Virus record (IMG/VR): IMGVR_UViG_2534681996_000012 | DNA: 39,373 nt | DNA from: a virus | Lineage: Duplodnaviria > Heunggongvirae > Uroviricota > Caudoviricetes | Strand: one strand, 5' to 3' | Shown here: positions 1,289 to 39,373 of the stretch, one piece after another | Numbering within the stretch: the stretch's first letter is position 1 | Layout: the number at the start of each line of letters is the position of its first letter | Position numbers and translations under genes: made by a program | Notes under the pieces: generated by a model | The model's database searches: none | What the model saw: only the letters and a program-made list of their open reading frames with translations | Told to the model about the DNA's origin: nothing

Positions 1289-1771
1289 CTATCTTGTCAG
1301 GGTGTCATACTGTTTTTCGCAGACTCTTCCGGCTTCGGCTGCCCGGTCAGCATACTCTGCCAGTTGTCTGTTTCTCTCGAGAGATTTGCTGAGCACGTCG
1401 GCAAGCAAAACTCCGGTGTCTGCGGCTGACGTCCCAGCGCCGACAATGGCGTTATACTGCCTGAGCTGCTCACGGATGGCAAAGAGTTGTTGCTGCAACC
1501 TGCCAGCGCGAGCGGCAGCATCAAGAGCATCATTGCGCGCCTGGTCGATTCTCTGCTGCGCTTCACGTTCATTGGTCACTTTCTCCTGTTCGTAGTACTG
1601 ACGAACTTTGTCTTCTTCGTCTTTGCGGTCTTCTTCCGCCTGCGCATACCCGGCATCGTACTGGCGACTGCCGTGTATATTCCAGGCAACCACTCCGACG
1701 ATGAACAGAGCAGCAAGCATCACCACGATAATCAGTTGTTTCCAATATGCTTTTACGAATGCCCAGATCAT
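1289..1771 (-). CDS. Rz-like i-spanin
   Basis: N-terminal TM segment ([18 protein letters not shown]) then charged coiled-coil; ATG overlaps endolysin stop (ATGA); last gene of lysis cassette. Confidence 0.7.
1297..1572 (-). CDS. Rz1-like o-spanin lipoprotein embedded in Rz in another frame
   Basis: ATG at 1572 with AGGAG 9 nt upstream; signal peptide [26 protein letters not shown] with lipobox; Pro-rich mature part; lies wholly inside the Rz ORF. Confidence 0.6.
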   Translation of the reverse strand: MNVKRSRESTRRAMMLLMLPLALAGCSNNSLPSVSSSGSITPLSALGRQPQTPEFCLPTCSANLSRETDNWQSMLTGQPKPEESAKNSMTP

Positions 1772-2397
1772 ATAGCCAGCACCTTACTGGCAGTGACGTA
1801 CCGCGAGCGCCGGTCGTCGATGCCGTTCCGGCCACCATTGATAATCAGAGTTACACGTGCAATATCACCGGTATACTTCATGCATCCTTTGCTGGCAAAG
1901 AACCACGCCGCGCTACGAGCCGCGTATTCGTCCTGCGCCAGCAGTTCAGGATTCTCCAGCAGGTCAACTTTCATACCGTTTCCGCAGTCACGATAGTTAT
2001 TCAAACCGGTAATCTGGATAAGCCCGCGCCCACGGTAATTCCAGCCATCGCCGGGAGCATTGTTACCCATGCGTTTGCTGTAAACCAGATTTGCGATCGC
2101 GCGCTGGCGCTCAAGTGGCAATGGTGGTTCACCAGCACGGCGCCCCAGTGCATTAGCCTGTCCCTGGGTGAGGCGTCCAGTCCTGACAAAGCTCGCCAGT
2201 CCGCTGACGCTGTAGTTGAAATTTTCCTGCAACCGGGTGAAGCCTCCAGACTCATGCCCGACCTGAGCAATAAACATTGCCTGATCTTCTGGTTTGCTGA
2301 TATCAAACTCTTTCATCGCAGAAGTTATATGCGAGAACCAGCGTGCGGCCAGCGCCTCGCTAATACCAGCAGCTCGTTGGAATTGTTTAATCTCCAT
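1768..2397 (-). CDS. Endolysin, glycoside hydrolase family 19 (chitinase-like lysozyme)
   Basis: Motifs [12 protein letters not shown] and [12 protein letters not shown] characteristic of GH19 phage endolysins; RBS GAGGT; between holin-like genes and Rz. Confidence 0.8.
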
Positions 2398-2695
2398 GTT
2401 TAGACCTCGTTATTTTGAAAATCTGAACAACGTTACCGCGAGTTTTAATAACCGCAGCTAGCATGACAGCGTTGATAATGACCTCAGATAAATCCACAGC
2501 CATTGGCGTACGTAACCAGATTGCATAGGCGACACGAACAGGAATACTGGCCGCAGCAACAATCAGGAAATAAGCAAGCCATCCTCCCCACCTTCGGTGT
2601 TGAGAGCCGTTACGCCGGAATGTGACAACGCGAATTGCTATGCCAGTGCAAATAACTGCATTGGTGATAAGCAAAAAAAACTCATGCGTTACCAT
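2387..2695 (-). CDS. Small membrane protein, holin/antiholin candidate
   Basis: Three hydrophobic segments and charged C-terminus; ATG 2695 with GGGGAG RBS; overlaps neighbours on both sides. Confidence 0.45.
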
Positions 2696-3086
2696 CGTCT
2701 TTTCTCCCCGGAATTAACTCGCGTGGATTATCGGAACGGTGATAAAGCCATATACCAATTCGCACAGCGACAATTGACGACACAAATGCGCCAGCAGAGA
2801 AGACGATCCCTTTCTCGAAAGAGTCCTGCGTGATGGTAGGGATCAGGCTGGCTACACCGATAAGGATGGATGCTGTAGGTTTGTAAAAGAGAAGGCCACA
2901 GAGAAAGCTAAGCATCGACAAGAGTACGCGACGACGAATGGGATACTCTACTGCAGAGGTAACAAAAATAACCGCTCCAGCCAAAGACCCCAAAGCAACC
3001 TCAGGAGGTGCTCCTGCTATAACCGCCACCAGAGAACTCATGCTAAGCCACTGATTTAAAGACTCACTGGTTATCTGAACTGACAT
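2682..3086 (-). CDS. Holin candidate
   Basis: ATG at 3086 preceded by GGTGG (track start 3095 is GTG); hydrophobic helices, charged C-terminal tail; first gene of lysis cassette. Confidence 0.55.
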   Translation of the reverse strand: MSVQITSESLNQWLSMSSLVAVIAGAPPEVALGSLAGAVIFVTSAVEYPIRRRVLLSMLSFLCGLLFYKPTASILIGVASLIPTITQDSFEKGIVFSAGAFVSSIVAVRIGIWLYHRSDNPRELIPGRKDDGNA

Positions 3087-3322
3087 AAAAACCACCGTTT
3101 AATGTGCATATGCCCCCCTAATTTAAGGGGTTCATCATACACAATAAACCACATGTGGTTAAACAGGTAATTCATTGTGATACTAATGTTAAACTCATTA
3201 CTGCCGAAAAAGTGTCACTGATTAAAACACGGTAGAGAAATTATTAACGAGTAATTTAGGCATAATTACAATATTTAAGTTATTAATTCACTGATTTAAT
3301 CAGTAAAAGATAGCTATAACAT

Positions 3323-3368: not shown

Positions 3369-5384
3369 TTACGCACTTCGTAATAAATGTTTAGACATAG
3401 CAGCAATACAGAAACAAGATAAGTCAGCGTAATTTACACCATACATATCCGATTCTTTATCATAAGTAACCAGAGAATAGTCTGTAGGGTTAAGATTATA
3501 TTTCTCCATAATCAGCATTACTTCTTGAGCCATACATCCGAAGTGATACTTATCAGATTCTGCATCTGTCCATTTAAACTTTATCATGCTAATGGCTAAT
3601 TCTAGCCCTGCACTATACTCTGCCGTAGATATCTCATACACATCTTTACATCTACCGTCAGATGTTTGTATTACACCATTAGTTGCAAAGACAGTTTGCC
3701 ATCTACGACTAGATTGACCACAAGTTCTTTGATTATCTATCTGGGGGGCAACACTACCATCTATACGCAAATAGTTATCTTCCGCTTGTGCGCCTCCCAT
3801 AACACCTTCTAAAAAAGGCAATCCTTTGTGATTATTTACAATGAATTTATTGGAGGTATCTTCTGATATTCCGGTGCCAGCATCTGGACCTATAAAAATA
3901 TTACCATTTCCAGTTGGTAATTTTCTTCCTGCTCTTGCTCCTATCATAACATTCAGGTCACCTGAGGATAGGGAATTGAGAGCATCAACACCAATTGCTG
4001 TATTAAAATTACCTGTGAGAGTCCCAGTGTATGGGTTCTTAGTTGATGATACTCCTCGCAATGCTCCATTACCTATAGCTGTGTTATGATCACCTTGCTT
4101 TAACTCCCTACCAGCTGCATTACCAATAAGGGTATTTCCATTACATTTATCATACCCAAGACGTACACCTTGAGGGTCTGTGTAGATGCCAGTACGCATT
4201 CCTGCAGAGCGTCCTATTGCAACATTAGCTTCTCCAGAATGGAGTTGCTGCAAAGCTGACATACCAACTGCAACATTGAACCTACCATCCTTACACTCGT
4301 TTAGCGCATCCCTGCCAATACCAATCATGTTATTTCCAGTGGTGGCTTTCTTCAAAGCATTAATACCTATACTGATAATCTCTGTTCCAGAAAATGGCGA
4401 CTTATCTGTAAGATCATCTTCTAGAGTATCTCCTGACAAACCACCCACACCAACCACGATTGTGTTAGTGCCGCTAGTTATGTTGCGACCAGAACTTGGT
4501 CCAAGCAAAACCAATTGATTACCTTTACCAGAGTCAGTGTAATTTTTTGCGGCATCATAACCTAAAATAAGGTTGCTATGAGACTGAGCTACATTGGTAA
4601 ACGGAATTCGTTCCGCTCCTGTCTCTTTAATTATTTTTCCTGGGCCATAAAATCTTCCATTAATATCTTCCGGCAATAAATACGTGCCATCAGGAACATA
4701 AACACCTTGTGGCGAAGCAGATGCCGCGGCAATGAAAGCATCTGTATCATTTGTGACTCCATCACCTTTAGCGCCAAAGTCAAGAACACTGACAGTATCC
4801 CGCATCTTATCCTGAAACGTTCTATATACCGCGCCTGAACCATACTGAATAAACCAACCAAAACCACCAACAACCCCGGCGATTGCAGCATCGACATAAT
4901 TACGCATTGAGCGATTATTTACAGCGTCCTGCTCAAGTGATGGATCTGCAAGGTTAGAAATTCTGTTTTGCTTTGCATCGTAATATTTTGCAAGCAAAGA
5001 TGGTTTCATCAATGCACGTCTGAACCACCCAAAACATTGCTGGATCAGCATCGTCAGGTAGTCAAAGGCATCTTCATGCACTTCGGGGAAAAACTTTCCC
5101 TGATTGCGAAGGTCTGTCTCCTGCACTACATCAAGCACACGATCTATCGTAATTCGCCATCCAGCAGCAAGCGGCGACGGAAGAACAACAGAACCGCCAC
5201 TATAAGTGCCCGCCCCAGTTACCGTATAACCGGTATCCAGAACCAATTCTGTTACGTTCCCGTTCAGGTCAGACACCTGAACAACCAGGTCGGATTTTTT
5301 GAAAATACGGAAGGTATACGGAAATGATGTCGTAACGCCGTTACCTGTGTATTCGTTGTGGTCAACTTCGGTTGAGACCGTCAT
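3369..5384 (-). CDS. Tail spike/fibre: T7 gp17-like N-terminal adaptor, beta-helix depolymerase-like centre, C-terminal intramolecular chaperone (peptidase S74-like)
   Basis: N-terminus MTVSTEVDHNEYTGNGVTTSFPYTFRIF...LVVQV resembles T7 tail-fibre N-terminal domain; VLDFGAKGDGVTNDTDAF beta-helix signature; C-terminal region resembles autoproteolytic chaperone domains; RBS GGAG. Confidence 0.8.
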   Translation of the reverse strand: MTVSTEVDHNEYTGNGVTTSFPYTFRIFKKSDLVVQVSDLNGNVTELVLDTGYTVTGAGTYSGGSVVLPSPLAAGWRITIDRVLDVVQETDLRNQGKFFPEVHEDAFDYLTMLIQQCFGWFRRALMKPSLLAKYYDAKQNRISNLADPSLEQDAVNNRSMRNYVDAAIAGVVGGFGWFIQYGSGAVYRTFQDKMRDTVSVLDFGAKGDGVTNDTDAFIAAASASPQGVYVPDGTYLLPEDINGRFYGPGKIIKETGAERIPFTNVAQSHSNLILGYDAAKNYTDSGKGNQLVLLGPSSGRNITSGTNTIVVGVGGLSGDTLEDDLTDKSPFSGTEIISIGINALKKATTGNNMIGIGRDALNECKDGRFNVAVGMSALQQLHSGEANVAIGRSAGMRTGIYTDPQGVRLGYDKCNGNTLIGNAAGRELKQGDHNTAIGNGALRGVSSTKNPYTGTLTGNFNTAIGVDALNSLSSGDLNVMIGARAGRKLPTGNGNIFIGPDAGTGISEDTSNKFIVNNHKGLPFLEGVMGGAQAEDNYLRIDGSVAPQIDNQRTCGQSSRRWQTVFATNGVIQTSDGRCKDVYEISTAEYSAGLELAISMIKFKWTDAESDKYHFGCMAQEVMLIMEKYNLNPTDYSLVTYDKESDMYGVNYADLSCFCIAAMSKHLLRSA

Positions 5385-5488: not shown

Positions 5489-5503
5489 TTACCTTTTAGG
5501 TAA
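5489..5503. promoter_or_regulatory. Operator-like palindrome TTACC-TTTTA-GGTAA in the tail-spike/accessory divergent region
   Basis: Perfect half-sites; 38 nt upstream of the LexA box. Confidence 0.5.
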
Positions 5504-5540: not shown

Positions 5541-5560
5541 TACTGTATAAATATACAGTT
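5541..5560 (+). promoter_or_regulatory. LexA (SOS) box
   Basis: TACTGTATAAATATACAGTT matches CTGT-N8-ACAG consensus with AT-rich centre (18/20 to TACTGTATATATATACAGTA); about 20 nt upstream of the 5581 ATG; degenerate half-box at 5470-5485. Confidence 0.8.
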
Positions 5561-5580
5561 ATTGCATGGAGAAGATTAAG

Positions 5581-5838
5581 ATGCAGCAGTATCACTATCC
5601 ACTGGAAGACGGATTTACCGAAAGGATTCACACGCCGGGAGGCGTCAAGTCACTGGTGGAGGGATCGCACTTGATGAAATTACTCCGGGATCTCGATAAG
5701 GATGGATTTAATGTCGATGGCCCACTTGCCGAACTGACTGCACTGATTAACTACGTCACCAGCTCACAGATGTCTATGCAGGATCTGCAAACACATCTCG
5801 ACTATTGTGCCGAACAATTACGAAAACAAACCAGATAA
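5581..5838 (+). CDS. Small protein sharing a C-terminal domain with the downstream Bro-N antirepressor; antirepressor-like regulator candidate
   Basis: ATG 5581 with GGAG 9 nt upstream (track start 5566 lacks RBS); IHTPGGVKSLVEGSHLMKLL...DLQTHLDYCAEQ aligns with IHSPSGVLGLTENSLLMNLL...DIQTHAEYIND of the 6152-6838 product. Confidence 0.55.
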   Translation: MQQYHYPLEDGFTERIHTPGGVKSLVEGSHLMKLLRDLDKDGFNVDGPLAELTALINYVTSSQMSMQDLQTHLDYCAEQLRKQTR

Positions 5839-5869: not shown

Positions 5870-5884
5870 TTACCTTTGCGGTAA
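5870..5884. promoter_or_regulatory. Operator-like palindrome TTACC-TTTGC-GGTAA between the small LexA-controlled gene and the antirepressor
   Basis: Perfect half-sites; followed by hairpins and a weak terminator. Confidence 0.5.
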
Positions 5885-5978
5885 ATTTACATCGCACTCC
5901 TCTTGTGCCATAGTAATCGGGCACTGGCAAAATCCAGTGCCGGGATTGGCGTCCCGAGTTACTACAGAGGCACATATG

Positions 5979-5998
5979 CCGCATAAGCGGTTTTTTTT
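5979..5998 (+). terminator. Weak intrinsic terminator (short stem plus T8)
   Basis: CCGC-ATAA-GCGG followed by eight T; sits between the small LexA-controlled gene and the antirepressor. Confidence 0.45.
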
Positions 5999-6151
5999 AT
6001 GTGTAAAGCGCACCTATTCTATGGTGGGCTGTGTGGGGGCACCGAAAGGTGCGCCGGGTCCTTTGTAGCCGGTTACGCCAACCCTGCACAGTTCACCACC
6101 AACCGATTGGCGTCGGTAGTGGTGATTAACCTAACTACAAAGGTGATCACT

Positions 6152-6838
6152 ATGACTGCTAACGTAACCCCATCTGTTTTTCATTTTGAATCAGAAGCAA
6201 CCATTCGAGCCATTGTTATTGATGGAAATCCTTGGTTTGTTGCCAAAGACGTTATTAAAGCTCTTCAACTGACAAACCCCACTATGTCAATAAAATCTCT
6301 TGATGATGATGAAAGGGCTAAATTTAACTTAGGCCGTCAAGGCGAAACCAATATTATCAACGAGTCAGGCCTCTACACACTGATCCTCCGCTGCCGCGAT
6401 GCAGTAACACCAGGCACTATCCCCTACCGCTTTCGCAAATGGGTTACAGGTGAGGTACTTCCTCAGATCCGCCGCACCGGAAGTTACATTAAAAACTCGC
6501 TCCCGCAGGAAGAACGCATAAAGATGGTTGCCGACCAGGTAGCCAACGCCACGGCGTCAGCAGTGATGCAGGCAATGAAGATAGAGAACAAAACCTACAG
6601 CGCCCCGCTGAAGCCCGGCTACCGCAGCCTGATTCATTCTCCGTCTGGTGTTCTCGGCCTGACGGAGAACTCACTGCTGATGAATCTGCTGAACCAGTTA
6701 CAGGACGACGGGCACGACGTATCGGGCGCGGCGGCGGAGCTGACCACCATGTTCTGTTACATCGTTGGTGTGAGCAAATGCCTGCGTGATATCCAGACCC
6801 ACGCGGAGTACATCAACGACAAGGCAGGGTTCTTCTGA
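6152..6838 (+). CDS. Bro-N domain antirepressor-like protein
   Basis: N-terminal IRAIVIDGNPWFVAKDV...ESGLYTLILRC...FRKWVTGEVLPQIRRTGSY is a Bro-N signature; ATG 6152 with AAGGTGA 5 nt upstream; track extension to 5999 spans a terminator and is rejected. Confidence 0.75.
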   Translation: MTANVTPSVFHFESEATIRAIVIDGNPWFVAKDVIKALQLTNPTMSIKSLDDDERAKFNLGRQGETNIINESGLYTLILRCRDAVTPGTIPYRFRKWVTGEVLPQIRRTGSYIKNSLPQEERIKMVADQVANATASAVMQAMKIENKTYSAPLKPGYRSLIHSPSGVLGLTENSLLMNLLNQLQDDGHDVSGAAAELTTMFCYIVGVSKCLRDIQTHAEYINDKAGFF

Positions 6839-6904: not shown

Positions 6905-6919
6905 TTACCTTAAAGGTAA
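6905..6919. promoter_or_regulatory. Operator-like palindrome TTACC-TTAAA-GGTAA upstream of the toxin/antitoxin-like pair
   Basis: Perfect half-sites, 43 nt upstream of the 6962 ATG. Confidence 0.5.
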
Positions 6920-6961: not shown

Positions 6962-7288
6962 ATGACAAAACTTGGATTCGTGATGAGAGGTCCGGTAAGA
7001 AGCGGAACTCATGCAAAGCGTAGCAAGAGTCGTATTTTTACTGGTAAGGTTGTAGCACGTAAATCAGCTATTGGCTCGTTCAATAGTGAAAATGCGGCAT
7101 TGCGCCATATTTTTATCAGCACAAAGCCAAGAGCATCCGCTGATGTGCATACAATGACTATTCCTATCACAAAGAATATAAAGCGGATAAAAAAGCTCTC
7201 ATCTGCAGAATCAAAAGAGATATCTTTCCGCCAGCTTAACTCATTAGAAACGCATATGAAGGAAGAGGAATTCGATGTTTTTGAGTGA
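6962..7288 (+). CDS. Basic small protein with acidic C-terminal tail; antitoxin candidate
   Basis: GGAG RBS; K/R-rich N-terminal half; C-terminus ...LETHMKEEEFDVFE; stop lies 12 nt after the downstream gene's ATG. Confidence 0.4.
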   Translation: MTKLGFVMRGPVRSGTHAKRSKSRIFTGKVVARKSAIGSFNSENAALRHIFISTKPRASADVHTMTIPITKNIKRIKKLSSAESKEISFRQLNSLETHMKEEEFDVFE

Positions 7289-7787: not shown

Positions 7788-7868
7788 TAGTTTTTTATGG
7801 ACGAAACAAAAGTCAGTGCTACACTCATTGACGCCACATTGAGGTGGATTATAGATGGAAATTTCACA

Positions 7869-31223: not shown

Positions 31224-31226
31224 GAT

Positions 31227-31241: not shown

Positions 31242-31340
31242 TTAAAAACCACATAAGACACGAAATCAATAGATTTTAGAATACTTTATTATCTAACAGG
31301 TAATTATCGAAACGTAAAAAAATGCGCTATCGCGCTGGTA

Positions 31341-33154: not shown

Positions 33155-33203
33155 GGTAAGCCCTGTTATTAGCATTGGGATTACGGTCATTTTGTGCTGA
33201 CAC

Positions 33204-33234
33204 AAAAAAAAGATCAACCAGATTTGGTTTTTTA
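33204..33234. terminator. Terminator-like hairpin with T/A tracts on both sides, downstream of the Cro-like gene
   Basis: AACCA-GATT-TGGTT flanked by A8 upstream and T5 downstream; operator variant TTACC-TTTGA-GGTGC follows at 33235-33249. Confidence 0.5.
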
Positions 33235-33304: not shown

Positions 33305-33535
33305 TCATGAGTAGAAGAAGTATGCCAGTTCTGCTTTTGAGCGCAGCCATTGTCTTGTTTTACAGGCTTTAAAAAGCCCATTCATCAATACTTTACCTGG
33401 CATTTTGCGCTTACCTGTTAAGTGAGTCTGGATATAGTGACTCGTCGTTCCGGCTTCCTGTGCGAAGGCTTCACGCTCATCCGGAGTAAGTGCAAGCCAG
33501 TGCTTTTTGAAATCGAAATGTCCGTTATCGCTCAT
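33305..33535 (-). CDS. Cro-like HTH regulator
   Basis: 76 aa, divergent from the repressor gene across an operator-bearing intergenic region; HTH-like segment EREAFAQEAGTTSHYIQTHLTG. Confidence 0.5.
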   Translation of the reverse strand: MSDNGHFDFKKHWLALTPDEREAFAQEAGTTSHYIQTHLTGKRKMPGKVLMNGLFKACKTRQWLRSKAELAYFFYS

Positions 33536-33571: not shown

Positions 33572-33634
33572 TCACCCATAAGGTAACAAAAATCAAGGAT
33601 AGTTACCTATGGGGTGCATTTACCTGTTGGGTAA
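33572..33634. promoter_or_regulatory. Immunity-region operator cluster (three TTACC-N5-GGTAA-type sites) with divergent promoters
   Basis: TCACC-CATAA-GGTAA 33572-33586, TTACC-TATGG-GGTGC 33603-33617, TTACC-TGTTG-GGTAA 33620-33634; plus AT-rich inverted repeat TATTTAT-N8-ATAAATA at 33549-33570. Confidence 0.6.
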
Positions 33635-33689: not shown

Positions 33690-34274
33690 ATGAAAAGTAT
33701 CCAGGACGTCCGCAGGCAAAATCTCAACGACTTGATCGACCGTGAATTCAATGGTGTTCAGACGCGGATGGCAGAAAAACTTGGAACTCAGGCAAATCTG
33801 GTAAACCGCTGGGCTCTTGGCAAGAAGGTTATCGGCGACCAGGTTGCGCGAAAAATTGAAGCTGCCGCCAATAAACCCCGTAACTGGCTTGATATCGATC
33901 GCTCGCTTTCTCAGGAAGGTTTTCAGCCTGTCGGCCCAAGCGACATTGGTCAGCTGGCGGCTCACAACCTGGAACGCTGGATGAGCGAAAGCCGCGACCT
34001 TTCAACACAGGGAAAACTTCACCGCGCATCCGGCGTCGCCCAGGTGACAATCAGCCGCCTGTTAAACAATGAGGTCAGCGTTTCCATTTCCACCCTGGAG
34101 AATGTTGCATCCGCATTCGGGCGTCACGGCTATGAATTACTGATTCACCCGCACGACCCTGCGACCATCAACTATGACCGCTCGCGCTACGCATTGTTAC
34201 CCGAAACCGAGAAAGCAAAGATCGAAAGTTACATTGAATTTGTCATCAACCAGAACGAAAAAAACAAACAATAA
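33690..34274 (+). CDS. Prophage repressor, tandem HTH domains, no LexA-like peptidase domain
   Basis: Two XRE-type HTH-like segments (MAEKLGTQANLVNRWALGKK and LHRASGVAQVTISRLLNNE); no Ala-Gly cleavage site or Ser/Lys dyad; followed by terminator and operator-controlled promoter. Confidence 0.65.
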   Translation: MKSIQDVRRQNLNDLIDREFNGVQTRMAEKLGTQANLVNRWALGKKVIGDQVARKIEAAANKPRNWLDIDRSLSQEGFQPVGPSDIGQLAAHNLERWMSESRDLSTQGKLHRASGVAQVTISRLLNNEVSVSISTLENVASAFGRHGYELLIHPHDPATINYDRSRYALLPETEKAKIESYIEFVINQNEKNKQ

Positions 34275-34294: not shown

Positions 34295-34320
34295 AAGCCG
34301 CCTTCTGGCGGCTTTTTTAT
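34295..34320 (+). terminator. Rho-independent terminator after repressor gene
   Basis: AAGCCGCC-TTCT-GGCGGCTT followed by TTTTTTATT. Confidence 0.75.
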
Positions 34321-34331: not shown

Positions 34332-34408
34332 TTACCTTAAGGGTAATTTTTTTAACTCATATCTATTGACACCAAACCAAATACGCATAATCATTACCTC
34401 AACGGTAA
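34332..34408 (+). promoter_or_regulatory. Early-left promoter (TTGACA ... CATAAT) flanked by two perfect operator palindromes
   Basis: TTACC-TTAAG-GGTAA at 34332-34346; TTGACA 34366-34371; CATAAT 34386-34391; TTACC-TCAAC-GGTAA at 34394-34408. Confidence 0.6.
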
Positions 34409-34427: not shown

Positions 34428-34580
34428 ATGCAGTGGAAAATCATCAACGGTTGGTACTGCGTTACTGCATGCGGATTCATGAGCTGGAAGTTCCGCACCT
34501 TACAGGAAGGCATTAAGTGGGCTTTCGTCAGCAAAGAAGCTCGCGATGTGGCCAACGATAACGAGATATGGGAGGGCTGA
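34428..34580 (+). CDS. Small 50-aa ORF, first gene of early-left operon
   Basis: GAGGT 9 nt upstream of ATG; stop 2 nt before the next gene's ATG; Trp/Cys-containing hydrophobic N-terminus; below the track's length cut-off. Confidence 0.35.
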   Translation: MQWKIINGWYCVTACGFMSWKFRTLQEGIKWAFVSKEARDVANDNEIWEG

Positions 34581-34582
34581 TA

Positions 34583-34882
34583 ATGAACGTTAATCAGCAG
34601 CAAAATCTTCAAAAAATCATGCTGGCATTCGACAAGGACTACCGCCTGTCAGAGCAGCTATATGACCGACAAGTTGAACTGATCGAGAGCATCCGGCTTC
34701 ATCAACTAGCCTCAACTTTCGACGCTGTAACAGGTAAAGGCGTTCGCCAGGAAGTACTGGAGGCCGCTAAAGACAGTCCAGAGTTCGAAGAACTGATGGA
34801 TTCCTACCGGCGCGAGGCAATGGCAATTATCGCGCGCTGGGATCTGGCTGATCAGCTTGATGGGCAGAGGGACGCGGCATGA
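34583..34882 (+). CDS. Hypothetical protein
   Basis: ATG 34583 with GGAGG 6 nt upstream (track start 34568 lacks RBS); stop overlaps next start. Confidence 0.5.
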   Translation: MNVNQQQNLQKIMLAFDKDYRLSEQLYDRQVELIESIRLHQLASTFDAVTGKGVRQEVLEAAKDSPEFEELMDSYRREAMAIIARWDLADQLDGQRDAA

Positions 34883-35700
34883 AACCGGGAATTTATTTCG
34901 ACATCAGCAACGAAGACTACCACGCCGGGGACGGCGTGAGTAAGTCGCAACTGGACATGGTTGCCAAGAATCCGGCGCTTCTTAAATGGGTTCAGGCAGC
35001 ACCAGAAGACGAAGAGAAAAAGTCTGCACTGGATATGGGAACCGCATTGCACTGTCTGCTTCTGGAGCCTGGAGAGTTCGACAAACGCTTCATTGTTTCG
35101 CCGAAATTCGATCGTCGGACGAAACAAGGTAAAGCTGACGAAGAGGCATTTCTTCGTGATGTGGCGGATATGGGGATTACGGTACTTGATGCCGAGCAGT
35201 GGCGGAAACTGGAGCTGATGCGTGATAGCGCAATGGCTCACCCGGCGGCACGCTGGATGTTGGAAGCACCTGGTTACTGCGAAGCATCAATGTACTGGAA
35301 CGATGAAGAGACGGGTGAGTTGTGCCGAATTCGTCCAGACAAATGGCTGAACGAGCACAACGTGATCGTCGACGTGAAAAAGGTTGCAGATATGGACCGT
35401 TTTGCACGCCACATCGAGGAGTTCCGCTACCACGTGCAGGACGCAATGTACCGCGAAGGCGCAATGAGGGTTACTGGTCAGCCACATGGTTTTTTCTTTC
35501 TTGCCGTGAGCGAAAGCATTGATTGTGGTCGGTATCCGGTACGCGTGTTCGAGCTGGATGCGCCGGATGTCGATGCCGGGCACGCTCTGTTCCGCCGGGA
35601 TCTGAATACCTATCACGAATGCCGCATCAACGATGAATGGGGCGGAGTGGAAATTATTAAACGCCATGACTGGGCACGTAAACAGGATATGTACGTATGA
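34879..35700 (+). CDS. PD-(D/E)XK-type nuclease (recombination exonuclease candidate)
   Basis: Motif ...RPDKW...IVDVKK consistent with a D...(D/E)xK active site; translationally coupled to the RecT-like gene. Confidence 0.55.
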   Translation: MKPGIYFDISNEDYHAGDGVSKSQLDMVAKNPALLKWVQAAPEDEEKKSALDMGTALHCLLLEPGEFDKRFIVSPKFDRRTKQGKADEEAFLRDVADMGITVLDAEQWRKLELMRDSAMAHPAARWMLEAPGYCEASMYWNDEETGELCRIRPDKWLNEHNVIVDVKKVADMDRFARHIEEFRYHVQDAMYREGAMRVTGQPHGFFFLAVSESIDCGRYPVRVFELDAPDVDAGHALFRRDLNTYHECRINDEWGGVEIIKRHDWARKQDMYV

Positions 35701-36578
35701 GCAATGATATCGCAATCACATCACAACCAGGCGCAACTGTAGGCACTGCTGCGGCAATCTTCAGCCCCGAGGGCATGAATCAACTGGTGCGTTTCGCGGA
35801 GTTGATGTCACAAAGCAAAGCGACTGTACCGGAACATCTTGAAGGCAAACCTGCCGATTGCCTGGCGGTGACCATGCAGGCGGCACAGTGGGGAATGAAC
35901 CCTTTCGCCGTGGCGCAGAAAACGCATGTGGTAAACGGAAAGTTAGGCTACGAAGCACAGTTGGTAAACGCGGTCGTATCCTCTTCCAGCCTGCTGGCGA
36001 CACGCCTGAATTATCGCTGGAGCGGTGACTGGTCGAATGTTAACGGCAAAACAGATAAATCACCGAATCTGACGGTAACTGTGTCAGCAGTTCTTAAAGG
36101 AGAAGCAGAACCACGTGAGCTTACCATCAGTATGGCGCAAGCAGGAGTGCGTAACTCTCCATTGTGGGAACAGGATCCGCGCCAGCAACTTGCCTATCTT
36201 TGCACGAAACGATGGGCTCGCTTGCACGCTCCTGATGTACTTCTCGGTGTTTACACCCCTGACGAATTACAGGAAACGGCACCGCGCGTTGAGCGAGACA
36301 TTACTCCGCAAACGACCACTGCTGCGGGAATGAACAGTCTGATCAACGCTAAACAAGTGAAAAAGCCTGATGAGCAAACGCGTAAAGCGGATAGCCGTGA
36401 TCCAGAAGAAATGCTAATGGCCTTTACCAGCGCAGCGATGAATTACAGCACTGTCTCCGAACTGGATAAAGCTTACAAATACATTGCACAAAAACTTTCA
36501 GATGATGACGAACTGCTGGCAAAAGCCACCGACGTTTACAGCGTTCGTCGGGAAGAATTAAACGAAACATCTATGTAA
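35697..36578 (+). CDS. RecT/Redbeta-like single-strand annealing protein
   Basis: Central region GMNPFAVAQKTHVVNGKLGYEAQLVNAV resembles RecT-family core; ATGA overlap with upstream nuclease gene. Confidence 0.55.
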   Translation: MSNDIAITSQPGATVGTAAAIFSPEGMNQLVRFAELMSQSKATVPEHLEGKPADCLAVTMQAAQWGMNPFAVAQKTHVVNGKLGYEAQLVNAVVSSSSLLATRLNYRWSGDWSNVNGKTDKSPNLTVTVSAVLKGEAEPRELTISMAQAGVRNSPLWEQDPRQQLAYLCTKRWARLHAPDVLLGVYTPDELQETAPRVERDITPQTTTAAGMNSLINAKQVKKPDEQTRKADSRDPEEMLMAFTSAAMNYSTVSELDKAYKYIAQKLSDDDELLAKATDVYSVRREELNETSM

Positions 36579-36627
36579 CCACCACCGCGGCGCCACGCGC
36601 GCCGCACTGCAACCAAGAGAGGTATTT

Positions 36628-36876
36628 ATGAAAGGTGCATTAGGTAAGAAGGAACTCCTGGCGGTGGTGCCACTGTCATGGAGCACTATCGACCGTATGG
36701 AGCGCGCAGGGGAATTTCCTAAACGCTGGTATATCACCGATAAACGCTGCGCATGGAACCGTGATGAAGTTGAGCGTTGGCTTGATGAACGTCAGGCAGC
36801 AAGCCCGGCAGAGTTCCAGGGTAAAAAACCTCCTGTTCAGCAACGTGTATATCGTCCCGTGAGCAACGCGGCATGA
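36628..36876 (+). CDS. AlpA/excisionase-like small DNA-binding protein
   Basis: 82 aa; LLAVVPLSWSTIDRMERAGEFP...WNRDEVERWLDERQ resembles AlpA-type HTH; GAGAGG RBS. Confidence 0.5.
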   Translation: MKGALGKKELLAVVPLSWSTIDRMERAGEFPKRWYITDKRCAWNRDEVERWLDERQAASPAEFQGKKPPVQQRVYRPVSNAA

Positions 36877-36985
36877 GTGTGCTGCTAAGGCACTGGAGCA
36901 AATGGTCAGGATGGTACTTATTCCTGGCCTCTGTTTCTGCATGGCTTTATCTGCTGGCATTAATTTTCAGAGAGGGTTGGATTAA

Positions 36986-37285
36986 GTGAGAAAGTTAAGC
37001 CGACTTGAAAAATATCACATGAACAAGGTTTCAATGCGCAGCCCTTCAAAGGTTGTTGCCGTTACTCCTGCGGCGATAGAGATCGAAAAACGCGCGATTG
37101 AAAGAGAGAAAAAAGGGCAGTTCCGCATTGCCGCCCACCTTTGGCTTCAGTGTATGGATGTTGCTTCTGGTGATGTTGAGCGTGCAAGGATCGCGGTTCG
37201 CAGGGACCAATGTATCACAAAAGGTAACGGCCTTCGCCGTGGCGACTATAGCGGTATAGGATGTTGCGGGGTGGTTTATGACTAA
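36986..37285 (+). CDS. Hypothetical protein
   Basis: GTG start with AGAGGG 9 nt upstream; stop overlaps methyltransferase start. Confidence 0.4.
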   Translation: MRKLSRLEKYHMNKVSMRSPSKVVAVTPAAIEIEKRAIEREKKGQFRIAAHLWLQCMDVASGDVERARIAVRRDQCITKGNGLRRGDYSGIGCCGVVYD

Positions 37286-37928
37286 GAAATACACACTAAT
37301 CTATGCAGATCCACCCTGGGTATACCGGGACAAAGCCGCAGATGGTAATCGCGGTGCCGGTTTTAAATATCCGGTTATGAGTGTGATGGATATCTGCCGC
37401 CTTCCTGTGTGGGATTTGGCCGATGAAAACTGTCTGTTGGCCATGTGGTGGGTGCCAACACAACCACTCGAAGCACTAAAAGTTGTTGAAGCCTGGGGAT
37501 TCCGTCTGATGACCATGAAGGGATTCACGTGGATAAAATGTGGTAGTCGACAACCAGATAAACTGGTTATGGGTATGGGTCACATGACTCGCGCCAATAG
37601 TGAAGATTGCCTGTTTGCAGTAAAGGGAAAACTACCTCCGCGCATTAATGCAGGGATCGTTCAGTCATTTACCGCACCGCGGCTTGAGCATTCAAGAAAA
37701 CCAGATGTCGTTCGTGAAAAACTTGTGCAATTGTTAGGCGATGTTTCTCGCATTGAACTGTTCGCCCGCCAGTCGTCTCATGGCTTCGATGTTTGGGGTA
37801 ATCAGTGCGAAGACCCGGCAGTGCAACTACACCCTGGATACGCGTTGGATATTGCCAGATTAACAAATGCATTCAGCAATGCTCCGCTGTCACCAACAGA
37901 CAACCAGGGGCGGGAGCGTGCAGCATGA
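37278..37928 (+). CDS. N6-adenine DNA methyltransferase, MT-A70 family (orphan)
   Basis: Catalytic DPPW motif in LIYADPPWVY; GGGGTGG RBS; no adjacent restriction enzyme gene. Confidence 0.8.
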   Translation: MTKKYTLIYADPPWVYRDKAADGNRGAGFKYPVMSVMDICRLPVWDLADENCLLAMWWVPTQPLEALKVVEAWGFRLMTMKGFTWIKCGSRQPDKLVMGMGHMTRANSEDCLFAVKGKLPPRINAGIVQSFTAPRLEHSRKPDVVREKLVQLLGDVSRIELFARQSSHGFDVWGNQCEDPAVQLHPGYALDIARLTNAFSNAPLSPTDNQGRERAA

Positions 37929-38119
37929 ACCGGGCATCACCAGCAGATTTAAGGAAATGCCTTGAAACTGCAAACATGCTTGCACACAGCGGGATCAGGT
38001 TTGTTCCAATTCCCGCTGTCACCGATGCTGAATTTGCAACGCTGTCAGCAATATTCGCAGACAAAATTGAATCACTGGCAGCAGAAGCCGAGATGGAAGA
38101 AAATCAGCAGAATAATTAA
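37925..38119 (+). CDS. Hypothetical small protein
   Basis: ATG 37925 overlaps methyltransferase stop (ATGA); track start 37805 is a less likely in-frame extension. Confidence 0.4.
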   Translation: MNRASPADLRKCLETANMLAHSGIRFVPIPAVTDAEFATLSAIFADKIESLAAEAEMEENQQNN

Positions 38120-38122
38120 ACG

Positions 38123-39373
38123 TTATTCCCCCGCCATCCACTTCTCAAACTTCGACGGGGAGAACGGAATCAGATCCGTATGCTCCCCGTCAATCCAAGA
38201 ATCAATCATATCGGCCCACTGCTGCAACATGTAGGCGCGCTGTCTGGCGTATTCCGCTTTGTTATATACGGCGCGCACACCTTTCTGCTCATGTGCCAGA
38301 GCCTTTTCAATCCAGTCTGAAGGATAACCAGCCTCATGCAACAACGTACTGGCTGTACGGCGCATATCGTGTACGGTGAAGTCCTGAATATGCTCACCAT
38401 CTTCATTTATTATTTTCACCGTTCTGTCGATCAGAGAGTTCAGTGCGGCATTAGATAATGGCTTCCGGAAATTGTAACGACCAGGAACCAGGTATTCACT
38501 TCCACCAGCGCACATCTGCAACCCGACCAATATATCCTGTGCCTGTTTAGGCAGGTAAATAACGTGCGCCCGGCTTCCTTTCATGCGGTCTGAAGGAATT
38601 GTCCATGTCCATTTTTTAAAATCTATTTCATCCCACGTTGCATTGGTGAATTCGCCCTTACGAACCATAGTGATAAGCACCAGTTTTAAAGCCATTTTCA
38701 TAGTGCCCATAGCACCAATGGCATCCAGCGTGCGGAAGAACAGGCCAATTTCTTCTGGTGTCAGTGTTCGCTCTCGTGGTTTAAATATGGCGATAGACGA
38801 AGGTTTAATGTCAGCCGCAGGATTAAACAAACCATGACCACGGTCATTGGCGTGACGGTATACGCTACTGATGATCTCCCTGGCCTGCACTGCTGTTGCC
38901 CGGCCACCGCGTTCGACAATCCGGTCACACAAATCACGAACCATCGATGTGGTAATTTCAGCCATCATTTTATTGCCAAGAACCGGAAGTATGTCACGGT
39001 CGATCACCGCCTGTTTCATTGCGCGGGTACTGTCAGCCAGGATGACGTGTTTCATATAACTGTCGGTATGTACCGCAAACGTCTCGGCACCACGAATCTT
39101 TTTGATACCGTCACGTTTAGCCGCAGCCGGTGACTGGCCTGCTTTAAGCAGCTTCTTTGCAGCAATCAGTTCTTCTCGCGCTTCTGCCAGGCTGATACCG
39201 TCACGCCCATACTGCCCGATTACCAGCGTTTCGCGGCGACCGTTGATACGGTAGTCGTAGCGAAACGAGACCGTGCCTGACGTAAGCACAGCTACATACA
39301 GCCCGTCACGATCGGAGACCTTGTACAGTTTGTCCTGCGGCTTGAGGTTTTTTAATTTTGTATCGGTAAGCAC
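38123..39373 (-). CDS. int: Tyrosine integrase, P4-like (N-terminus runs off the window edge)
   Basis: N-terminal LTDTKLKNLKP arm-binding-type sequence; C-terminal catalytic HDMRRT and GVRAVYN (Tyr); ORF open to base 39373. Confidence 0.9.
   Translation of the reverse strand: MLTDTKLKNLKPQDKLYKVSDRDGLYVAVLTSGTVSFRYDYRINGRRETLVIGQYGRDGISLAEAREELIAAKKLLKAGQSPAAAKRDGIKKIRGAETFAVHTDSYMKHVILADSTRAMKQAVIDRDILPVLGNKMMAEITTSMVRDLCDRIVERGGRATAVQAREIISSVYRHANDRGHGLFNPAADIKPSSIAIFKPRERTLTPEEIGLFFRTLDAIGAMGTMKMALKLVLITMVRKGEFTNATWDEIDFKKWTWTIPSDRMKGSRAHVIYLPKQAQDILVGLQMCAGGSEYLVPGRYNFRKPLSNAALNSLIDRTVKIINEDGEHIQDFTVHDMRRTASTLLHEAGYPSDWIEKALAHEQKGVRAVYNKAEYARQRAYMLQQWADMIDSWIDGEHTDLIPFSPSKFEKWMAGE

Follow-up and report, generated by a model that had tools for sequence, protein, structure and literature searches.

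The DNA stretch analysed here (the window; 39,373 nucleotides) opens with two host genes, followed by a prophage of which the left attachment site and the integrase gene lie within the window.

1-516 (+): yfgH, host gene outside the prophage
532-1071 (+): yfgI, host gene outside the prophage
~1160-1176: attL core, identical at 16 of 17 positions to the attP/attB core published as attgagtgggaatgatt (reverse complement)
38123-39373 (-): P4-type tyrosine integrase, 416 aa (Pfam Arm-DNA-bind_3, Phage_int_M, Phage_integrase)

Positions 1-1071 share 98.8% identity with E. coli NZ_CP178552 across yfgH-yfgI, and the window's first 20 kb, which take in both genes, match 5421 of 5426 E. coli genomes. 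The attL core is one base off the canonical core (sequence from PMC9782041), and phage matches begin at position 1162; the prophage, first thought to start at 1289, actually starts at attL, and attR falls past the end of the window. Judging from the genomic context in L001, where the common core occurs at both prophage ends, at the guaA stop codon, attR and guaA are placed just past that end. E. coli WWCOL-236 shows the same yfgI/guaA insertion site, and the phiV10 homologue of the integrase is annotated as cd00801 INT_P4.

Virion and lysis genes

27579-28253 (-): terminase small subunit, terS (Pfam Terminase_2, 1.4e-29)
26113-27582 (-): terminase large subunit, terL (phrog_2)
24327-24533 (-): small gp3-like gene upstream of the portal gene
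22633-24312 (-): portal (Pfam PF12236 Head-tail_con, T7 gp8 family, 1.6e-187)
22340-22636 (-): Bbp19-like protein (Pfam)
21642-22343 (-): protease in the scaffold position (phrog_458)
20641-21633 (-): major capsid protein, GP7 family (Pfam; BPP-1 and epsilon15 structures)
20152-20589 (-): Bbp16 cement protein (Pfam)
19806-20150 (-): 114-aa head-region protein
19432-19761 (-): gp10-type capsid staple (Pfam; PF21628, PF21190, PF20911 and PF25181 for the head genes jointly)
18827-19435 (-): portal-tail adaptor (tubular tail protein A, T7 gp11 counterpart; fold match)
16356-18827 (-): tail nozzle (tubular tail protein B, T7 gp12 counterpart; PDB 8ck1_A, published profiles)
15892-16356 (-): internal virion protein, 154 aa, IVP-A position
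15347-15892 (-): internal virion protein, 181 aa, T7_gp14 family (Pfam PF24072, 2.5e-7)
12834-15422 (-): internal virion protein, 862 aa, lytic transglycosylase domain (epsilon15 gp15)
11035-12837 (-): internal virion protein, 600 aa (epsilon15 gp16)
8555-11029 (-): internal virion protein, 824 aa (epsilon15 gp17, IVP-D homologue)
3369-5384 (-): tailspike (Pfam PF12708, PF13884)
2682-3095 (-): membrane protein/holin (Pfam; Phage_holin_8 / Phage_holin_3_7 in the cassette)
2387-2695 (-): holin (same Pfam families)
1768-2397 (-): GH19 endolysin (Pfam Glyco_hydro_19)
1289-1771 (-): Rz-like i-spanin (Pfam DUF2514)
1297-1572: Rz1-like ORF embedded in the i-spanin gene

The gene coordinates agree with the minus-strand order proposed by the first-pass annotation (terS, terL, portal, scaffold position, capsid, adaptor, nozzle, internal virion proteins, tailspike, lysis), except that two plus-strand islands (5.4-8.0 kb and 24.6-26.1 kb) interrupt it and that the supposed scaffold bears the database name protease. 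The layout of the lysis cassette is identical in phiV10 and epsilon15. Sequence and alignment with epsilon15 make the ATG at 28175 the likely true start of terS.

How far, then, does this virion resemble that of T7? The sequence resemblance once claimed for gp11, gp12 and the gp17 N-terminus did not hold up: BLASTP returned E values of 26, 3.4 and 0.075, respectively, phmmer found no match to any of the three, and pairwise comparison of the portal with T7 gp8 was not significant. What likeness there is emerges at the level of profiles and folds. The portal, a member of the T7 gp8 family, matches the Carin-1 portal (8ck0_A, 6.1e-179), and a Foldseek search with the AF2 model of the adaptor (pLDDT 86.6) retrieved Carin-1 8ck1_E (1.2e-15) and, ranked behind Carin-1 and LME-1, T7 gp11 (7box_N, 9.7e-6, TM 0.60); the epsilon15 record likewise cites an HHpred match of its adaptor to T7 tail tubular protein A. 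The nozzle, with no direct sequence match to T7 gp12, is tied to it through a solved homologue (8ck1_A, 'Tail Nozzle', 3.6e-217; also LME-1 orf18, 5e-16) and through the published HMM-HMM match between the epsilon15 gp12 and T7 gp12 groups (E < 1e-10; PMC4819975). Across the ejection region (8555-16356), for which the epsilon15 homology assignments follow PMC4819975, PHROGs labels read 'internal virion protein', 'head protein' and 'virion structural protein', and the transglycosylase domain of the 862-aa protein matches 9vvp_L and 7q47. The tailspike combines an N-terminal particle-binding part (aa 1-~180), a pectate-lyase-type receptor-binding/depolymerase part and a C-terminal S74 chaperone domain; the N-terminal part finds the tailspike chain of Carin-1 (8ck1, 3.4e-35), and a fold search with it led to T7 gp17 N-terminal chains, a 78-residue core superposing at 1.9-2.6 A. 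The tails of LME-1 and Carin-1 have themselves been described as T7-like (PMC12407071).

Portal, adaptor, nozzle, ejection proteins and tailspike anchor thus belong to an ancient T7-type 'transient tail' lineage, and T7 likeness is limited to these parts and to the profile or fold level; since pairwise similarity to T7 gp8, gp11, gp12 and gp17 is absent, any shared ancestry must be old rather than recent. The proposal of a T7-like virion module fails, by contrast, for the capsid, the cement and staple proteins, the protease and the terminase. Unlike that of T7, the capsid is of the epsilon15/BPP-1 family with cement and staple proteins (BPP-1 3j4u, 9.5e-129; epsilon15 3j40, 2e-85), and in Hardies et al. 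the terminase and capsid of epsilon15 fall among siphovirus lineages (PMC4819975). Only in the exchangeable receptor-binding domain of the tailspike is there a strong link to an Autographiviridae phage: residues 177-671 are 82% identical to the tailspike of a Vectrevirus.

Early genes, operators and islands

5489-5503: operator, first plus-strand island
5541-5560: LexA box TACTGTATAAATATACAGTT, first island
5566-5838 (+): 90-aa gene, candidate SOS-induced small antirepressor (epsilon15 gp19 / phiV10 p24 homologue, phrog_450)
5870-5884: operator overlapping a promoter-like site (promoter scan)
5921-5997: isrK-family sRNA, first island (Rfam)
6017-6103: C4 antisense RNA, first island (Rfam)
6152-6838 (+): Bro-N antirepressor gene (Pfam Bro-N, 7.8e-20)
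6905-6919: operator, accessory island
6962-7288 (+): 108-aa gene, accessory island
7275-7787 (+): YafO-like 170-aa gene, accessory island
7797-8030 (+): 77-aa membrane protein, accessory island
24624-24638: operator, second plus-strand island, inside the late region
24961-25037 (+): tRNA-Arg(UCU) (ARAGORN, Rfam)
25242-25256: operator within a promoter-like site, second island
25261-26109 (+): 282-aa low-GC gene (GC 0.39; phrog_4780)
28175-28189 and 28193-28207: two operators abutting the terS start
28244-28227 (-): intrinsic terminator (terminator scan)
28175-28635: junction upstream of terS, containing the palindrome TGACATGTCAC
28294-28635 (-): 113-aa Cys-rich 'transcriptional regulator' (phrog_536)
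28625-31303 (-): Nin-like region (ASCH-like 93 aa, DUF551, DUF7739, two unassigned proteins, DUF1064; phiV10 annotation)
30879-31223 (-): DUF1064 resolvase-like protein of that region
31227-31303: two operators, Nin-like region
31341-32141 (-): lambda-P family helicase loader (Pfam PF06992, 1.7e-56)
32123-32938 (-): initiator with HTH_36 and DnaT domains (PF17948, PF13730; PHROG 'replication initiation protein / O-like')
32535-32684: iteron array inside the initiator gene
32954-33217 (-): 87-aa gene, immunity region
33283-33264: terminator (terminator scan)
33305-33535 (-): Cro-like gene, divergent from the repressor (Pfam HTH_3 and related families)
33572-33586 and 33620-33634: OR operators (motif match)
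33589-33561: PR-like promoter (promoter scan)
33690-34274 (+): two-HTH repressor (Pfam HTH_3 and related; phrog_35 cited for the region)
34295-34314: terminator (terminator scan)
34332-34346 and 34394-34408: OL operators (motif match)
34366-34394: PL-like promoter (promoter scan)
34568-38119 (+): early-left operon, opening with a 104-aa gene (Pfam)
34879-35700 (+): PD-(D/E)XK exonuclease
35697-36578 (+): RecT
36628-36876 (+): AlpA-type regulator / excisionase candidate
36986-37285 (+): PerC-like activator
37278-37928 (+): MT-A70 adenine methylase (Pfam; PADLOC MTase_II)
ending at 38119 (+): DUF1382 protein

Pfam and motif counts bear out the early-region content first described, namely a repressor/Cro switch, a lambda-P protein, iterons, an exonuclease with RecT and the P4-type integrase. 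Only the P half of the 'O/P-like' replication pair stands, the O-like protein being an HTH_36 and DnaT initiator and not Pfam lambda O; five exact YCCGTTTTYGG iterons (0.12 expected) all fall within 32537-32676. The repressor lacks an S24 autocleavage domain, a protein of the lambda O family is missing, and antiterminator families of the Q type were not detected; 'lambdoid' is for these reasons only a loose fit.

As the first-pass annotation held, there is no phage RNA polymerase gene: tblastn with T7 gp1 over all six frames of the window gave a best E of 0.64, a Pfam scan of the large ORFs (at least 489 aa, plus the 416-aa integrase) found no RNA polymerase family, and the flanks of a homologous insertion are the host genes yfgI and guaA. 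Transcription must consequently use host RNA polymerase, presumably with sigma-70. The operator TTACC-N5-GGTAA occurs 13 times against 0.59 expected, at module junctions as had been proposed, and in the epsilon15 record homologous junctions carry the same motif, labelled there as a repressor site. Sigma-70-like promoter matches overlap five of the 13 operators, although promoter and terminator scans overall showed no enrichment over shuffles.

From these elements we infer a regulatory model, including the promoter controlled by each operator. The two-HTH repressor, lacking autocleavage, would bind TTACC-N5-GGTAA at OR and OL; its further targets would be the sites that precede terS and the portal operon, the nin region, the accessory islands and the antirepressor genes, so that every operon would be directly silenced in the lysogen; overexpression of the homologous ZX5 repressor has been tested and has effects (PMC9782041). 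Once repression is lifted, leftward transcription from PR would cover cro, the iteron-bearing gene of the DnaT-type initiator, P and the nin genes.

What might trigger it? The LexA box, with two mismatches to the 20-nt consensus against zero such sites expected, is conserved in epsilon15 and phiV10, and the isrK and C4 RNAs score above their Rfam gathering thresholds (RF01394, 74.2 bits; RF01695, 79.5 bits). Together with two antirepressor candidates, these elements suggest SOS induction by antirepression. DNA damage would remove LexA from the near-consensus SOS box and allow expression of the 90-aa protein, a putative antirepressor by virtue of a weak match (3.5e-7) to the C-terminus of antirepressor family phrog_1760; the second antirepressor, Bro-N, would be gated by the isrK and C4 small RNAs. 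Overexpressed, the ZX5 Bro-N protein promotes the lytic cycle (PMC9782041), and a DNA-damaging microcin induces Uetakevirus prophages 21- to 47-fold (bioRxiv 10.64898/2026.05.26.727859).

Entry into the late operon would have to pass the terminator upstream of terS or restart after it. The junction (28175-28635; folding z-score -3.2) is conserved in epsilon15, where the sequence record marks both a terminator and a repressor site. The two operators abutting the terS start sit downstream of the terminator, an unusual position for promoter control, and the 113-aa Cys-rich regulator, which has no characterised homologue, is the best candidate for the late-entry step.

As for the island genes, the 170-aa product matches YafO weakly (E = 9.5e-4, under the Pfam cut-off), and a related prophage carries the annotation 'YafO family toxin'. 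Beyond phrog_4780, the 282-aa protein gave only coiled-coil-type noise.

Relatives and rival readings

Identity, gene content, motif enrichment, RNA family matches and fold matches are established here directly. The prophage shares 97.4-98.0% nucleotide identity with phiv142-3, HEMP4, PAS61, ZX5 and phiV10, and equally with O157 typing phages 9 and 10 (in each case over 86-89% of window 8000-30000); PAS61 and phiv142-3 match its right half at 98% identity over 85%, and identity to Salmonella epsilon15 and its relatives is ~76%. These values (97-98% over 85-89% of length for the Escherichia phages) place it in Uetakevirus, and gene for gene it is collinear with phiV10 and epsilon15 as annotated in their records, both classified in Uetakevirus. 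We are thus highly confident that this is an apparently intact Uetakevirus prophage (phiV10/epsilon15 group, temperate podoviruses) with a P4-type integrase at the guaA 3' end of an E. coli-type chromosome; nothing found argues against it. Short-tailed morphology and integration at guaA are reported for close relatives, and the original call of a temperate short-tailed phage is borne out.

Could this copy nevertheless be a defective or cryptic remnant unable to make particles? The question concerns its state and not its kind, and the answer is very probably no. The one-base deviation in attL, the position of attR outside the window and the replacement of several segments relative to reference phages would fit such decay; yet all phiV10 backbone genes are present as uninterrupted ORFs of expected length, neither IS elements nor truncations were seen, and near-identical prophages are inducible, spontaneously or chemically (PMC9782041; bioRxiv 10.64898/2026.05.26.727859). 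The replaced segments (tailspike receptor domain, accessory islands, part of the nin region, RecT variant) amount to 11-15% of length against any single sequenced phage, none of which is a complete match.

That this is a new or recent chimera, with a virion module of the Autographiviridae (T7 family) joined to lambdoid early genes and the RNA polymerase lost, is very improbable. The order portal, scaffold position, capsid, adaptor, nozzle, internal proteins and fibre position does parallel T7 genes 8-17, several proteins are T7-type by profile or fold, and the receptor domain is shared with a true Autographiviridae phage; but that link is confined to an exchangeable domain, pairwise similarity to the T7 proteins is missing, capsid, cement and protease are of another lineage, as are terminase and capsid of epsilon15 in published trees (PMC4819975), and the entire architecture, early region included, is kept at 97-98% in isolated phages and ~76% in epsilon15. 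The whole-genome comparison first suggested as a check did yield temperate relatives with a T7-type tail (phiV10, epsilon15), and in doing so replaced the newly seen mosaic with a collinear member of the long-known Uetakevirus. A T7-built short tail combined with dependence on host RNA polymerase is already documented in that genus, which makes the finding right in outline and ordinary; the T7-epsilon15 tail relationship was published earlier (Hardies 2016, PMC4819975), as was the cryo-EM of Carin-1 and LME-1.

A P22-like (Lederbergvirus) prophage, likewise a temperate podovirus with tailspikes, antirepressor region and lambdoid early genes, would account for the Terminase_2-type terS, the head-binding tailspike N-terminus and an antirepressor under antisense-RNA control, but has next to no chance of being correct, given a portal of the T7 gp8 and not the P22 family, a capsid of the epsilon15 GP7 family, an adaptor and nozzle that match Carin-1, LME-1 and T7 and not P22 gp4/gp10, and nucleotide matches that go to Uetakevirus genomes; like the recent joining of modules, it is contradicted by the results here. 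Among 5426 complete E. coli genomes, ~330 (~6%) carry 80% or more of the right half of this Uetakevirus prophage.

A Uetakevirus prophage inserted at guaA

The element is a member of the known genus Uetakevirus, a prophage type that is common and already well described, and it is placed there by nucleotide similarity, collinear gene order, integration at guaA and an epsilon15-type head. Between window positions 8000 and 30000 it is 97.4-98.0% identical, over 86-89% of the length, to phiv142-3, HEMP4, O157 typing phages 9 and 10, PAS61, vB_EcoP_ZX5 (ZX5) and phiV10; Enterobacter phage Tyrion follows at 81.5% identity, and Salmonella epsilon15 with its relatives at ~76%. PAS61 and phiv142-3 also match the right half of the window (98% identity over 85%), and collinearity holds gene for gene with phiV10 (NC_007804.2) and epsilon15 (AY150271.2), both recorded as Uetakevirus. 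At least 80% of the left half is present in ~195 complete E. coli genomes and at least 80% of the right half in ~330 of 5426 (about 6%).

The phages of the phiV10 group (phiV10, phiv142-3, ZX5, PAS61, HEMP4 and O157 typing phages 9 and 10) share with the window the gene order, the guaA site and the att core, with 97-98% identity over most of the genome, as well as the two-HTH repressor, the DnaT-type initiator with the lambda-P family protein, the P4-type integrase, the virion genes and the lysis cassette. They differ in the receptor domain of the tailspike (of the pectate-lyase/S74 type in the window), in the island between terL and portal (a tRNA-Arg and a 282-aa gene in the window), in a YafO-like gene pair present in the window and in parts of the nin region, which are replaced; in addition, phiV10 carries oac (an O-acetyltransferase gene) beside the tailspike, where the window is missing any O-antigen-modifying gene, and its record has a single fused RecE-RecT in place of separate exonuclease and RecT genes. 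Epsilon15, the type of the group, is collinear and shares the att core, but its ~76% nucleotide identity extends over about half of the late region only, and it has O-antigen polymerase serotype-conversion genes, a cytosine methylase, a RuvC-type resolvase and a different tailspike. A short-tailed virion with six tailspikes has been demonstrated in relatives (PMC9782041). A P22-like identity was also considered and rejected.

Host yfgH and yfgI occupy the first 1071 bases of the window, and position 1162 is the first base that matches sequenced phages. In E. coli WWCOL-236, yfgH/yfgI are followed by a homologous prophage whose integrase end adjoins guaA; a script comparing the two flanks found the core AATCATTCCCACTC common to both prophage ends, overlapping the guaA stop codon, although a repeat search within each att flank separately returned nothing. 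The attL copy of this core lies in the window at ~1160-1176, with one mismatch (16 of 17 bases). The attP/attB core of phiV10, epsilon15 and ZX5 is attgagtgggaatgatt, at the guaA 3' end (PMC9782041), and integration through it is indicated here by the attL match together with the homologous prophage between yfgI and guaA. Given the phage matches from 1162 and the core at ~1160-1176, the prophage spans ~1160 to just past the end of the window; attR is absent because the start codon of the integrase gene marks the exact end of the window. This P4-type integrase combines an N-terminal arm-binding domain (PF13356 Arm-DNA-bind_3, DUF4102, 3.9e-20) and PF22022 with a tyrosine recombinase catalytic domain (PF00589, 1.4e-19), and its phiV10 homologue carries an INT_P4 annotation.

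A T7-type tail on a head of another lineage

The late genes, all on the minus strand, are broken up by two plus-strand islands and run in the following order.

Minus strand: terS, Pfam Terminase_2
Minus strand: terL, PHROG terminase large subunit
Minus strand: portal, PF12236 Head-tail_con (T7 gp8 family), 1.6e-187
Minus strand: Bbp19-like protein
Minus strand: 233-aa protein, called protease by PHROGs and by the reference records
20641-21633, minus strand: major capsid protein, epsilon15 GP7 family
Minus strand: Bbp16 cement protein
Minus strand: gp10-type staple protein
Minus strand: 202-aa 'tail protein' (the adaptor, counterpart of T7 gp11)
Minus strand: 823-aa 'tail protein' (the nozzle, counterpart of T7 gp12)
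Minus strand: two small 'internal virion proteins'
Minus strand: 862-aa, 600-aa and 824-aa proteins
Minus strand, after a plus-strand island: tailspike
Minus strand: two holin-type proteins
Minus strand: GH19 endolysin
Minus strand: Rz/Rz1-type spanins

The first-pass annotation had read this inventory correctly in substance and had described the virion module as T7-like, with sequence resemblance to T7 gp11, gp12 and the gp17 N-terminus. At the sequence level this resemblance is absent, since comparison with the actual T7 proteins (taken from NC_001604) gave no significant pairwise match: BLASTP of T7 proteins against their window counterparts returned E = 26 for gp11, 3.4 for gp12, 0.075 for gp17 and 0.051 for gp8, a phmmer search of all the window proteins with 24 T7 proteins turned up nothing convincing, and T7 gp8-gp12, gp13-17, gp18, gp19 and the replication proteins found no significant pairwise match among all window proteins by BLASTP or phmmer, with one weak exception. 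Aligning shallow family profiles with single T7 sequences in hhalign yielded E = 0.93 (adaptor), 0.46 (nozzle) and 0.013 (tailspike N-terminus), the last alignment being colinear but not decisive. The weak exception is T7 gp3 endonuclease I, similar to a DUF1064 protein (30879-31223, minus strand; phmmer 7.8e-5 in a 51-protein search) that PHROGs label a Holliday junction resolvase.

The kinship appears at the level of profile and fold. Besides the portal, one of the small internal virion proteins belongs to a T7 Pfam family (T7_gp14), and a lytic transglycosylase is present among the ejected proteins, here as in T7. The AlphaFold model of the adaptor (202 aa, pLDDT 86.6) retrieved the Carin-1 connector first (1.2e-15), then the LME-1 adaptor and then T7 gp11, for which several entries score about 1e-5 (7box_N, 9.7e-6) with a TM of about 0.6 and 12% identity. 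The tailspike N-terminal model, confident only at residues 10-88, retrieved the Carin-1 tailspike first and chains of the T7 gp17 N-terminus next, with a 78-residue core superposing at 1.9-2.6 A. The nozzle (823 aa) matches the Carin-1 'Tail Nozzle' chain 8ck1_A at 3.6e-217; it has no direct sequence match to T7 gp12, and a PDB profile search with the nozzle alignment did not reach gp12, so that the link to gp12 is drawn from 8ck1_A and the literature (PMC4819975).

In Carin-1 (Cobetia; 8CK0/8CK1), the portal (6e-179), adaptor (3.5e-26), nozzle and tailspike N-terminus (3.4e-35) are sequence homologues of those in the window, and matches to LME-1 (Legionella; 9EFK) are weaker. Both phages have other hosts and other non-structural genes, the relatedness being limited to the virion module. 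Their tails closely resemble the T7 tail complex, and the solved structures show the T7 arrangement of a 12-mer portal, a 12-mer adaptor, a 6-mer nozzle and six trimeric fibres (PMC12407071). For epsilon15 itself, Hardies et al. (PMC4819975) reported that the gp12 groups of epsilon15 and T7 match each other strongly by HMM-HMM comparison, and the GenBank record notes that gp11 hit T7 tail tubular protein A in HHpred.

The head is a different matter. In Pfam its proteins fall into the GP7-family capsid (PF20911, 2e-149), gp10 staple (PF21628, 7e-52) and Bbp16-type cement (PF21190, 5e-47) families, the capsid protein has no phmmer match to T7 gp10, and T7 gp9, gp10, gp18 and gp19 together retrieved nothing among the window proteins. 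Hardies et al. (PMC4819975) group the terminase and the capsid of epsilon15 with siphovirus lineages. The portal, tail and ejection proteins are therefore of the ancient T7-type lineage, whereas the head is of another and the packaging machinery, per the same authors, is likewise of a non-T7 lineage. The label T7-like stands for the former set but not for the capsid, which is of the BPP-1/epsilon15 family. As a separate observation, the capsid is nearer to that of Bordetella phage BPP-1 (3j4u, 9.5e-129) than to epsilon15 gp7 (3j40, 2e-85), though epsilon15 is in the same genus. Sequence search of the PDB returned nothing for terL and the 600-aa and 824-aa internal proteins, and Pfam and NCBIfam nothing for the nozzle, the adaptor, terL and the 600-aa, 824-aa and 862-aa proteins.

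Could the element nevertheless be an Autographiviridae phage? What it shares with T7 is the order portal, scaffold-position gene, capsid, adaptor, nozzle, internal virion proteins and fibre, the portal and gp14 Pfam families, the gp11 fold and the gp17 N-terminal fold, so that the portal, adaptor and nozzle are of T7 type at the profile or fold level only. In contrast to T7, it is temperate, has a tailspike instead of a fibre and places its terminase genes upstream of the portal, not at the genome end; its capsid, protease and terminase belong to different lineages, the protein taken for a scaffold being annotated as a protease; and it has neither a T7-type DNA polymerase nor a primase-helicase (T7 gp4 and gp5 found no match among the window proteins by phmmer). 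A single-subunit RNA polymerase is also missing, as had been claimed: tblastn with T7 RNA polymerase as query reached no better E than 0.64 in any of the six frames, and the open reading frames of at least 416 aa are all structural, terminase or integrase genes, none matching an RNA polymerase family. Nor does such a gene lie just outside the window, because the neighbours on both sides of the homologous insertion in E. coli WWCOL-236 are host genes. A recent Autographiviridae chimera was considered and rejected.

The tailspike is the place where a T7-family phage does come into view. Only its N-terminal ~230 residues are common to other Uetakevirus tailspikes, and residues 177-671 (3369-4856, minus strand) are 82% identical to a tailspike of lytic Vectrevirus phages (Autographiviridae), e.g. 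vB_EcoP-G3A1. Judged from these alignments, this is a typical receptor-domain exchange and the sole strong sequence link to a T7-family phage. The observation made at first reading is thus largely correct, and its interpretation is right in part and not new, a T7-type tail without a phage RNA polymerase having been documented; indeed, the prophage type, the attachment site, the virion and the distant T7-tail kinship are all already in the literature and database annotation. As a well-resolved example, the element shows that common temperate E. coli phages carry the T7-type portal, adaptor, nozzle and ejection ensemble, and that this ensemble greatly exceeds the T7 transcription strategy in age and in spread.

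Early region and a proposed multi-operator circuit

A repressor/Cro switch, an exonuclease/RecT pair and a P4-type integrase, as proposed from the sequence, were all recovered by Pfam and other searches.

194-aa repressor: two HTH domains, without an S24 peptidase domain
76-aa Cro-like gene: divergent from the repressor
32537-32676, inside the initiator gene (HTH_36 and DnaT domains): iterons
Lambda-P family protein: PF06992, 1.7e-56
34879-36578, plus strand: PD-(D/E)XK exonuclease and RecT, two separate genes
Further early genes: AlpA-like and PerC-like regulators, MT-A70 methylase

Of the lambda O/P-like replication genes with iterons that had been claimed, the lambda-P family protein is present, as are the iterons, of which five exact copies of YCCGTTTTYGG (0.12 expected) all lie within the initiator gene; the initiator matches HTH_36 and DnaT and not Pfam Phage_rep_O, and its N-terminus matches PHROGs labelled 'O-like'. 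Replication pairs a lambda-P family protein with a DnaT-type initiator. Part of the RecT gene (35719-36330) cannot be aligned to the closest E. coli prophage.

The likeness to lambda comprises divergent repressor and Cro-like genes with operators, the lambda-P family protein, iterons inside the initiator gene, a recombination pair in the leftward operon and a nin-like region ahead of the late genes. Unlike that of lambda, the repressor gave no Peptidase_S24 match and so lacks a LexA-like autocleavage domain. Other differences are that a DnaT domain forms the C-terminal part of the initiator, that the searches detected neither a Q nor an N family protein (for Q-type antiterminators, Pfam, PHROG and NCBIfam gave none for the genes lying between P and terS), that operators are distributed across all junctions, and that the P4-type integrase is transcribed opposite to the recombination genes.

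These operators, with the motif TTACC-N5-GGTAA, occur in 13 copies at no more than one mismatch, against 0.59 expected.

5489, 5870, 6905, 24624, 25242, 28175, 28193, 31227, 31289, 33572, 33620, 34332, 34394: starts of the operators, 15 nt each

Four flank the repressor: two on the side of the Cro-like gene, in the interval separating these genes, and two downstream, before the leftward early operon. The remaining nine occupy junctions: one each upstream of the tailspike/90-aa gene pair, the Bro-N region, the YafO-like pair and the portal operon, one inside a promoter-like site before the 282-aa gene, a pair separating P from the nin genes and a pair abutting the terS start. The junction motif noted earlier is accordingly present, but it is not new, the same motif being annotated at homologous places in the epsilon15 record as a repressor binding site. 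Sigma-70-like hexamer pairs overlap 5 of the 13 operators, which a rough estimate of about 4e-4 under random placement makes unlikely by chance; overlaps of this kind are, however, inflated by intergenic AT-richness, and the promoter scan was not enriched overall. Because the promoter and terminator scans as a whole were not enriched over shuffles, only sites coinciding with operators or conserved junctions were used. A promoter-like site on the plus strand (31255-31282), flanked by two operators (31227-31303), would read antisense into the P gene.

How might an SOS signal reach a repressor that is unable to cleave itself? The following features bear on this question.

5541-5560: near-consensus LexA box TACTGTATAAATATACAGTT (0 expected), directly upstream of the 90-aa gene
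5566-5838, plus strand: 90-aa gene, phrog_450, with a weak family link to antirepressor C-termini
5921-5997, plus strand: isrK-family sRNA (Rfam 74 bits, above the gathering threshold)
6017-6103, plus strand: C4 antisense RNA (Rfam 79.5 bits, above the gathering threshold)
6152-6838: Bro-N antirepressor gene, with the tandem isrK and C4 RNAs just upstream

The LexA box is conserved before the homologous gene in epsilon15 (at 19841, before the gp19 homologue) and in phiV10 (at 20822). The 90-aa gene is a candidate for an SOS-induced antirepressor acting on a repressor without an S24 domain. The placement of isrK/C4 RNAs directly upstream of an antirepressor-type (Bro-N) gene resembles P1/P7 immI (C4 RNA-ant) and the Salmonella Gifsy-1 isrK locus, although here the set lies in a podovirus late region. 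In ZX5, overexpression of the repressor homologue blocks the lytic cycle and the Bro-N protein promotes it (PMC9782041), and in gut isolates a DNA-damaging microcin gave 21- to 47-fold induction of Uetakevirus prophages (bioRxiv 10.64898/2026.05.26.727859). SOS-triggered antirepression is proposed on the strength of these ZX5 effects and microcin induction, together with the missing autocleavage domain, the LexA box and the isrK/C4 RNAs with Bro-N.

A conserved junction separates the last nin-region gene from terS, at the entry to the ~27-kb late region that dispersed operators guard.

28170-28300, minus strand: late junction, in which two operators abut the probable start of terS (28175); it also holds an intrinsic terminator (28244-28227) and the palindrome TGACATGTCAC
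Just upstream: gene for a 113-aa Cys-rich protein, phrog_536 'transcriptional regulator'

The predicted RNA of the junction folds better than shuffled sequence (z = -3.2), and the terminator/operator arrangement upstream of terS is conserved in epsilon15, where the terminator is annotated. The 113-aa protein is a possible, if somewhat doubtful, candidate for the late switch, be it as activator or as antiterminator.

These elements may, though this is somewhat less likely than not, work as one circuit, in which a single non-cleavable repressor would guard every operon directly through about 13 dispersed operators, induction would depend on the SOS-controlled 90-aa antirepressor, backed by the RNA-gated Bro-N antirepressor, and the late operon would be opened by the small Cys-rich regulator at the conserved terminator/operator junction upstream of terS. 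Such regulation, which would differ from both lambda and T7 in its multi-operator repressor, dual antirepressors and Cys-rich late regulator, is put forward tentatively from sequence features. If true, it would let the host polymerase express a T7-type virion module in a phage that has neither Q nor an RNA polymerase of its own. The circuit has some ecological relevance, since tailspike exchange tracks the host O-antigen type and DNA-damaging bacteriocins induce these prophages in gut isolates.

Accessory islands

Two plus-strand islands interrupt the late genes.

24961-25037, plus strand: tRNA-Arg(UCU), between terL and portal, on the strand opposite to them
25261-26109, plus strand: 282-aa gene of low GC (0.39), between terL and portal
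6962-7288 and 7275-7787, plus strand: overlapping gene pair, the second a weak YafO-toxin match (E = 9.5e-4, below the Pfam cut-off)

The database matches of the 282-aa gene are of the coiled-coil type only, and PADLOC and NCBIfam, which returned a methyltransferase match and coiled-coil noise among the accessory genes, assigned no defence system to it or to the YafO-like pair. An operator falls within a good -10/-35 match ending 2 nt before the ATG of the 282-aa gene. The overlapping pair, absent from the closest E. coli prophage compared, may encode a toxin and its antitoxin, as its YafO-like second gene would suggest.
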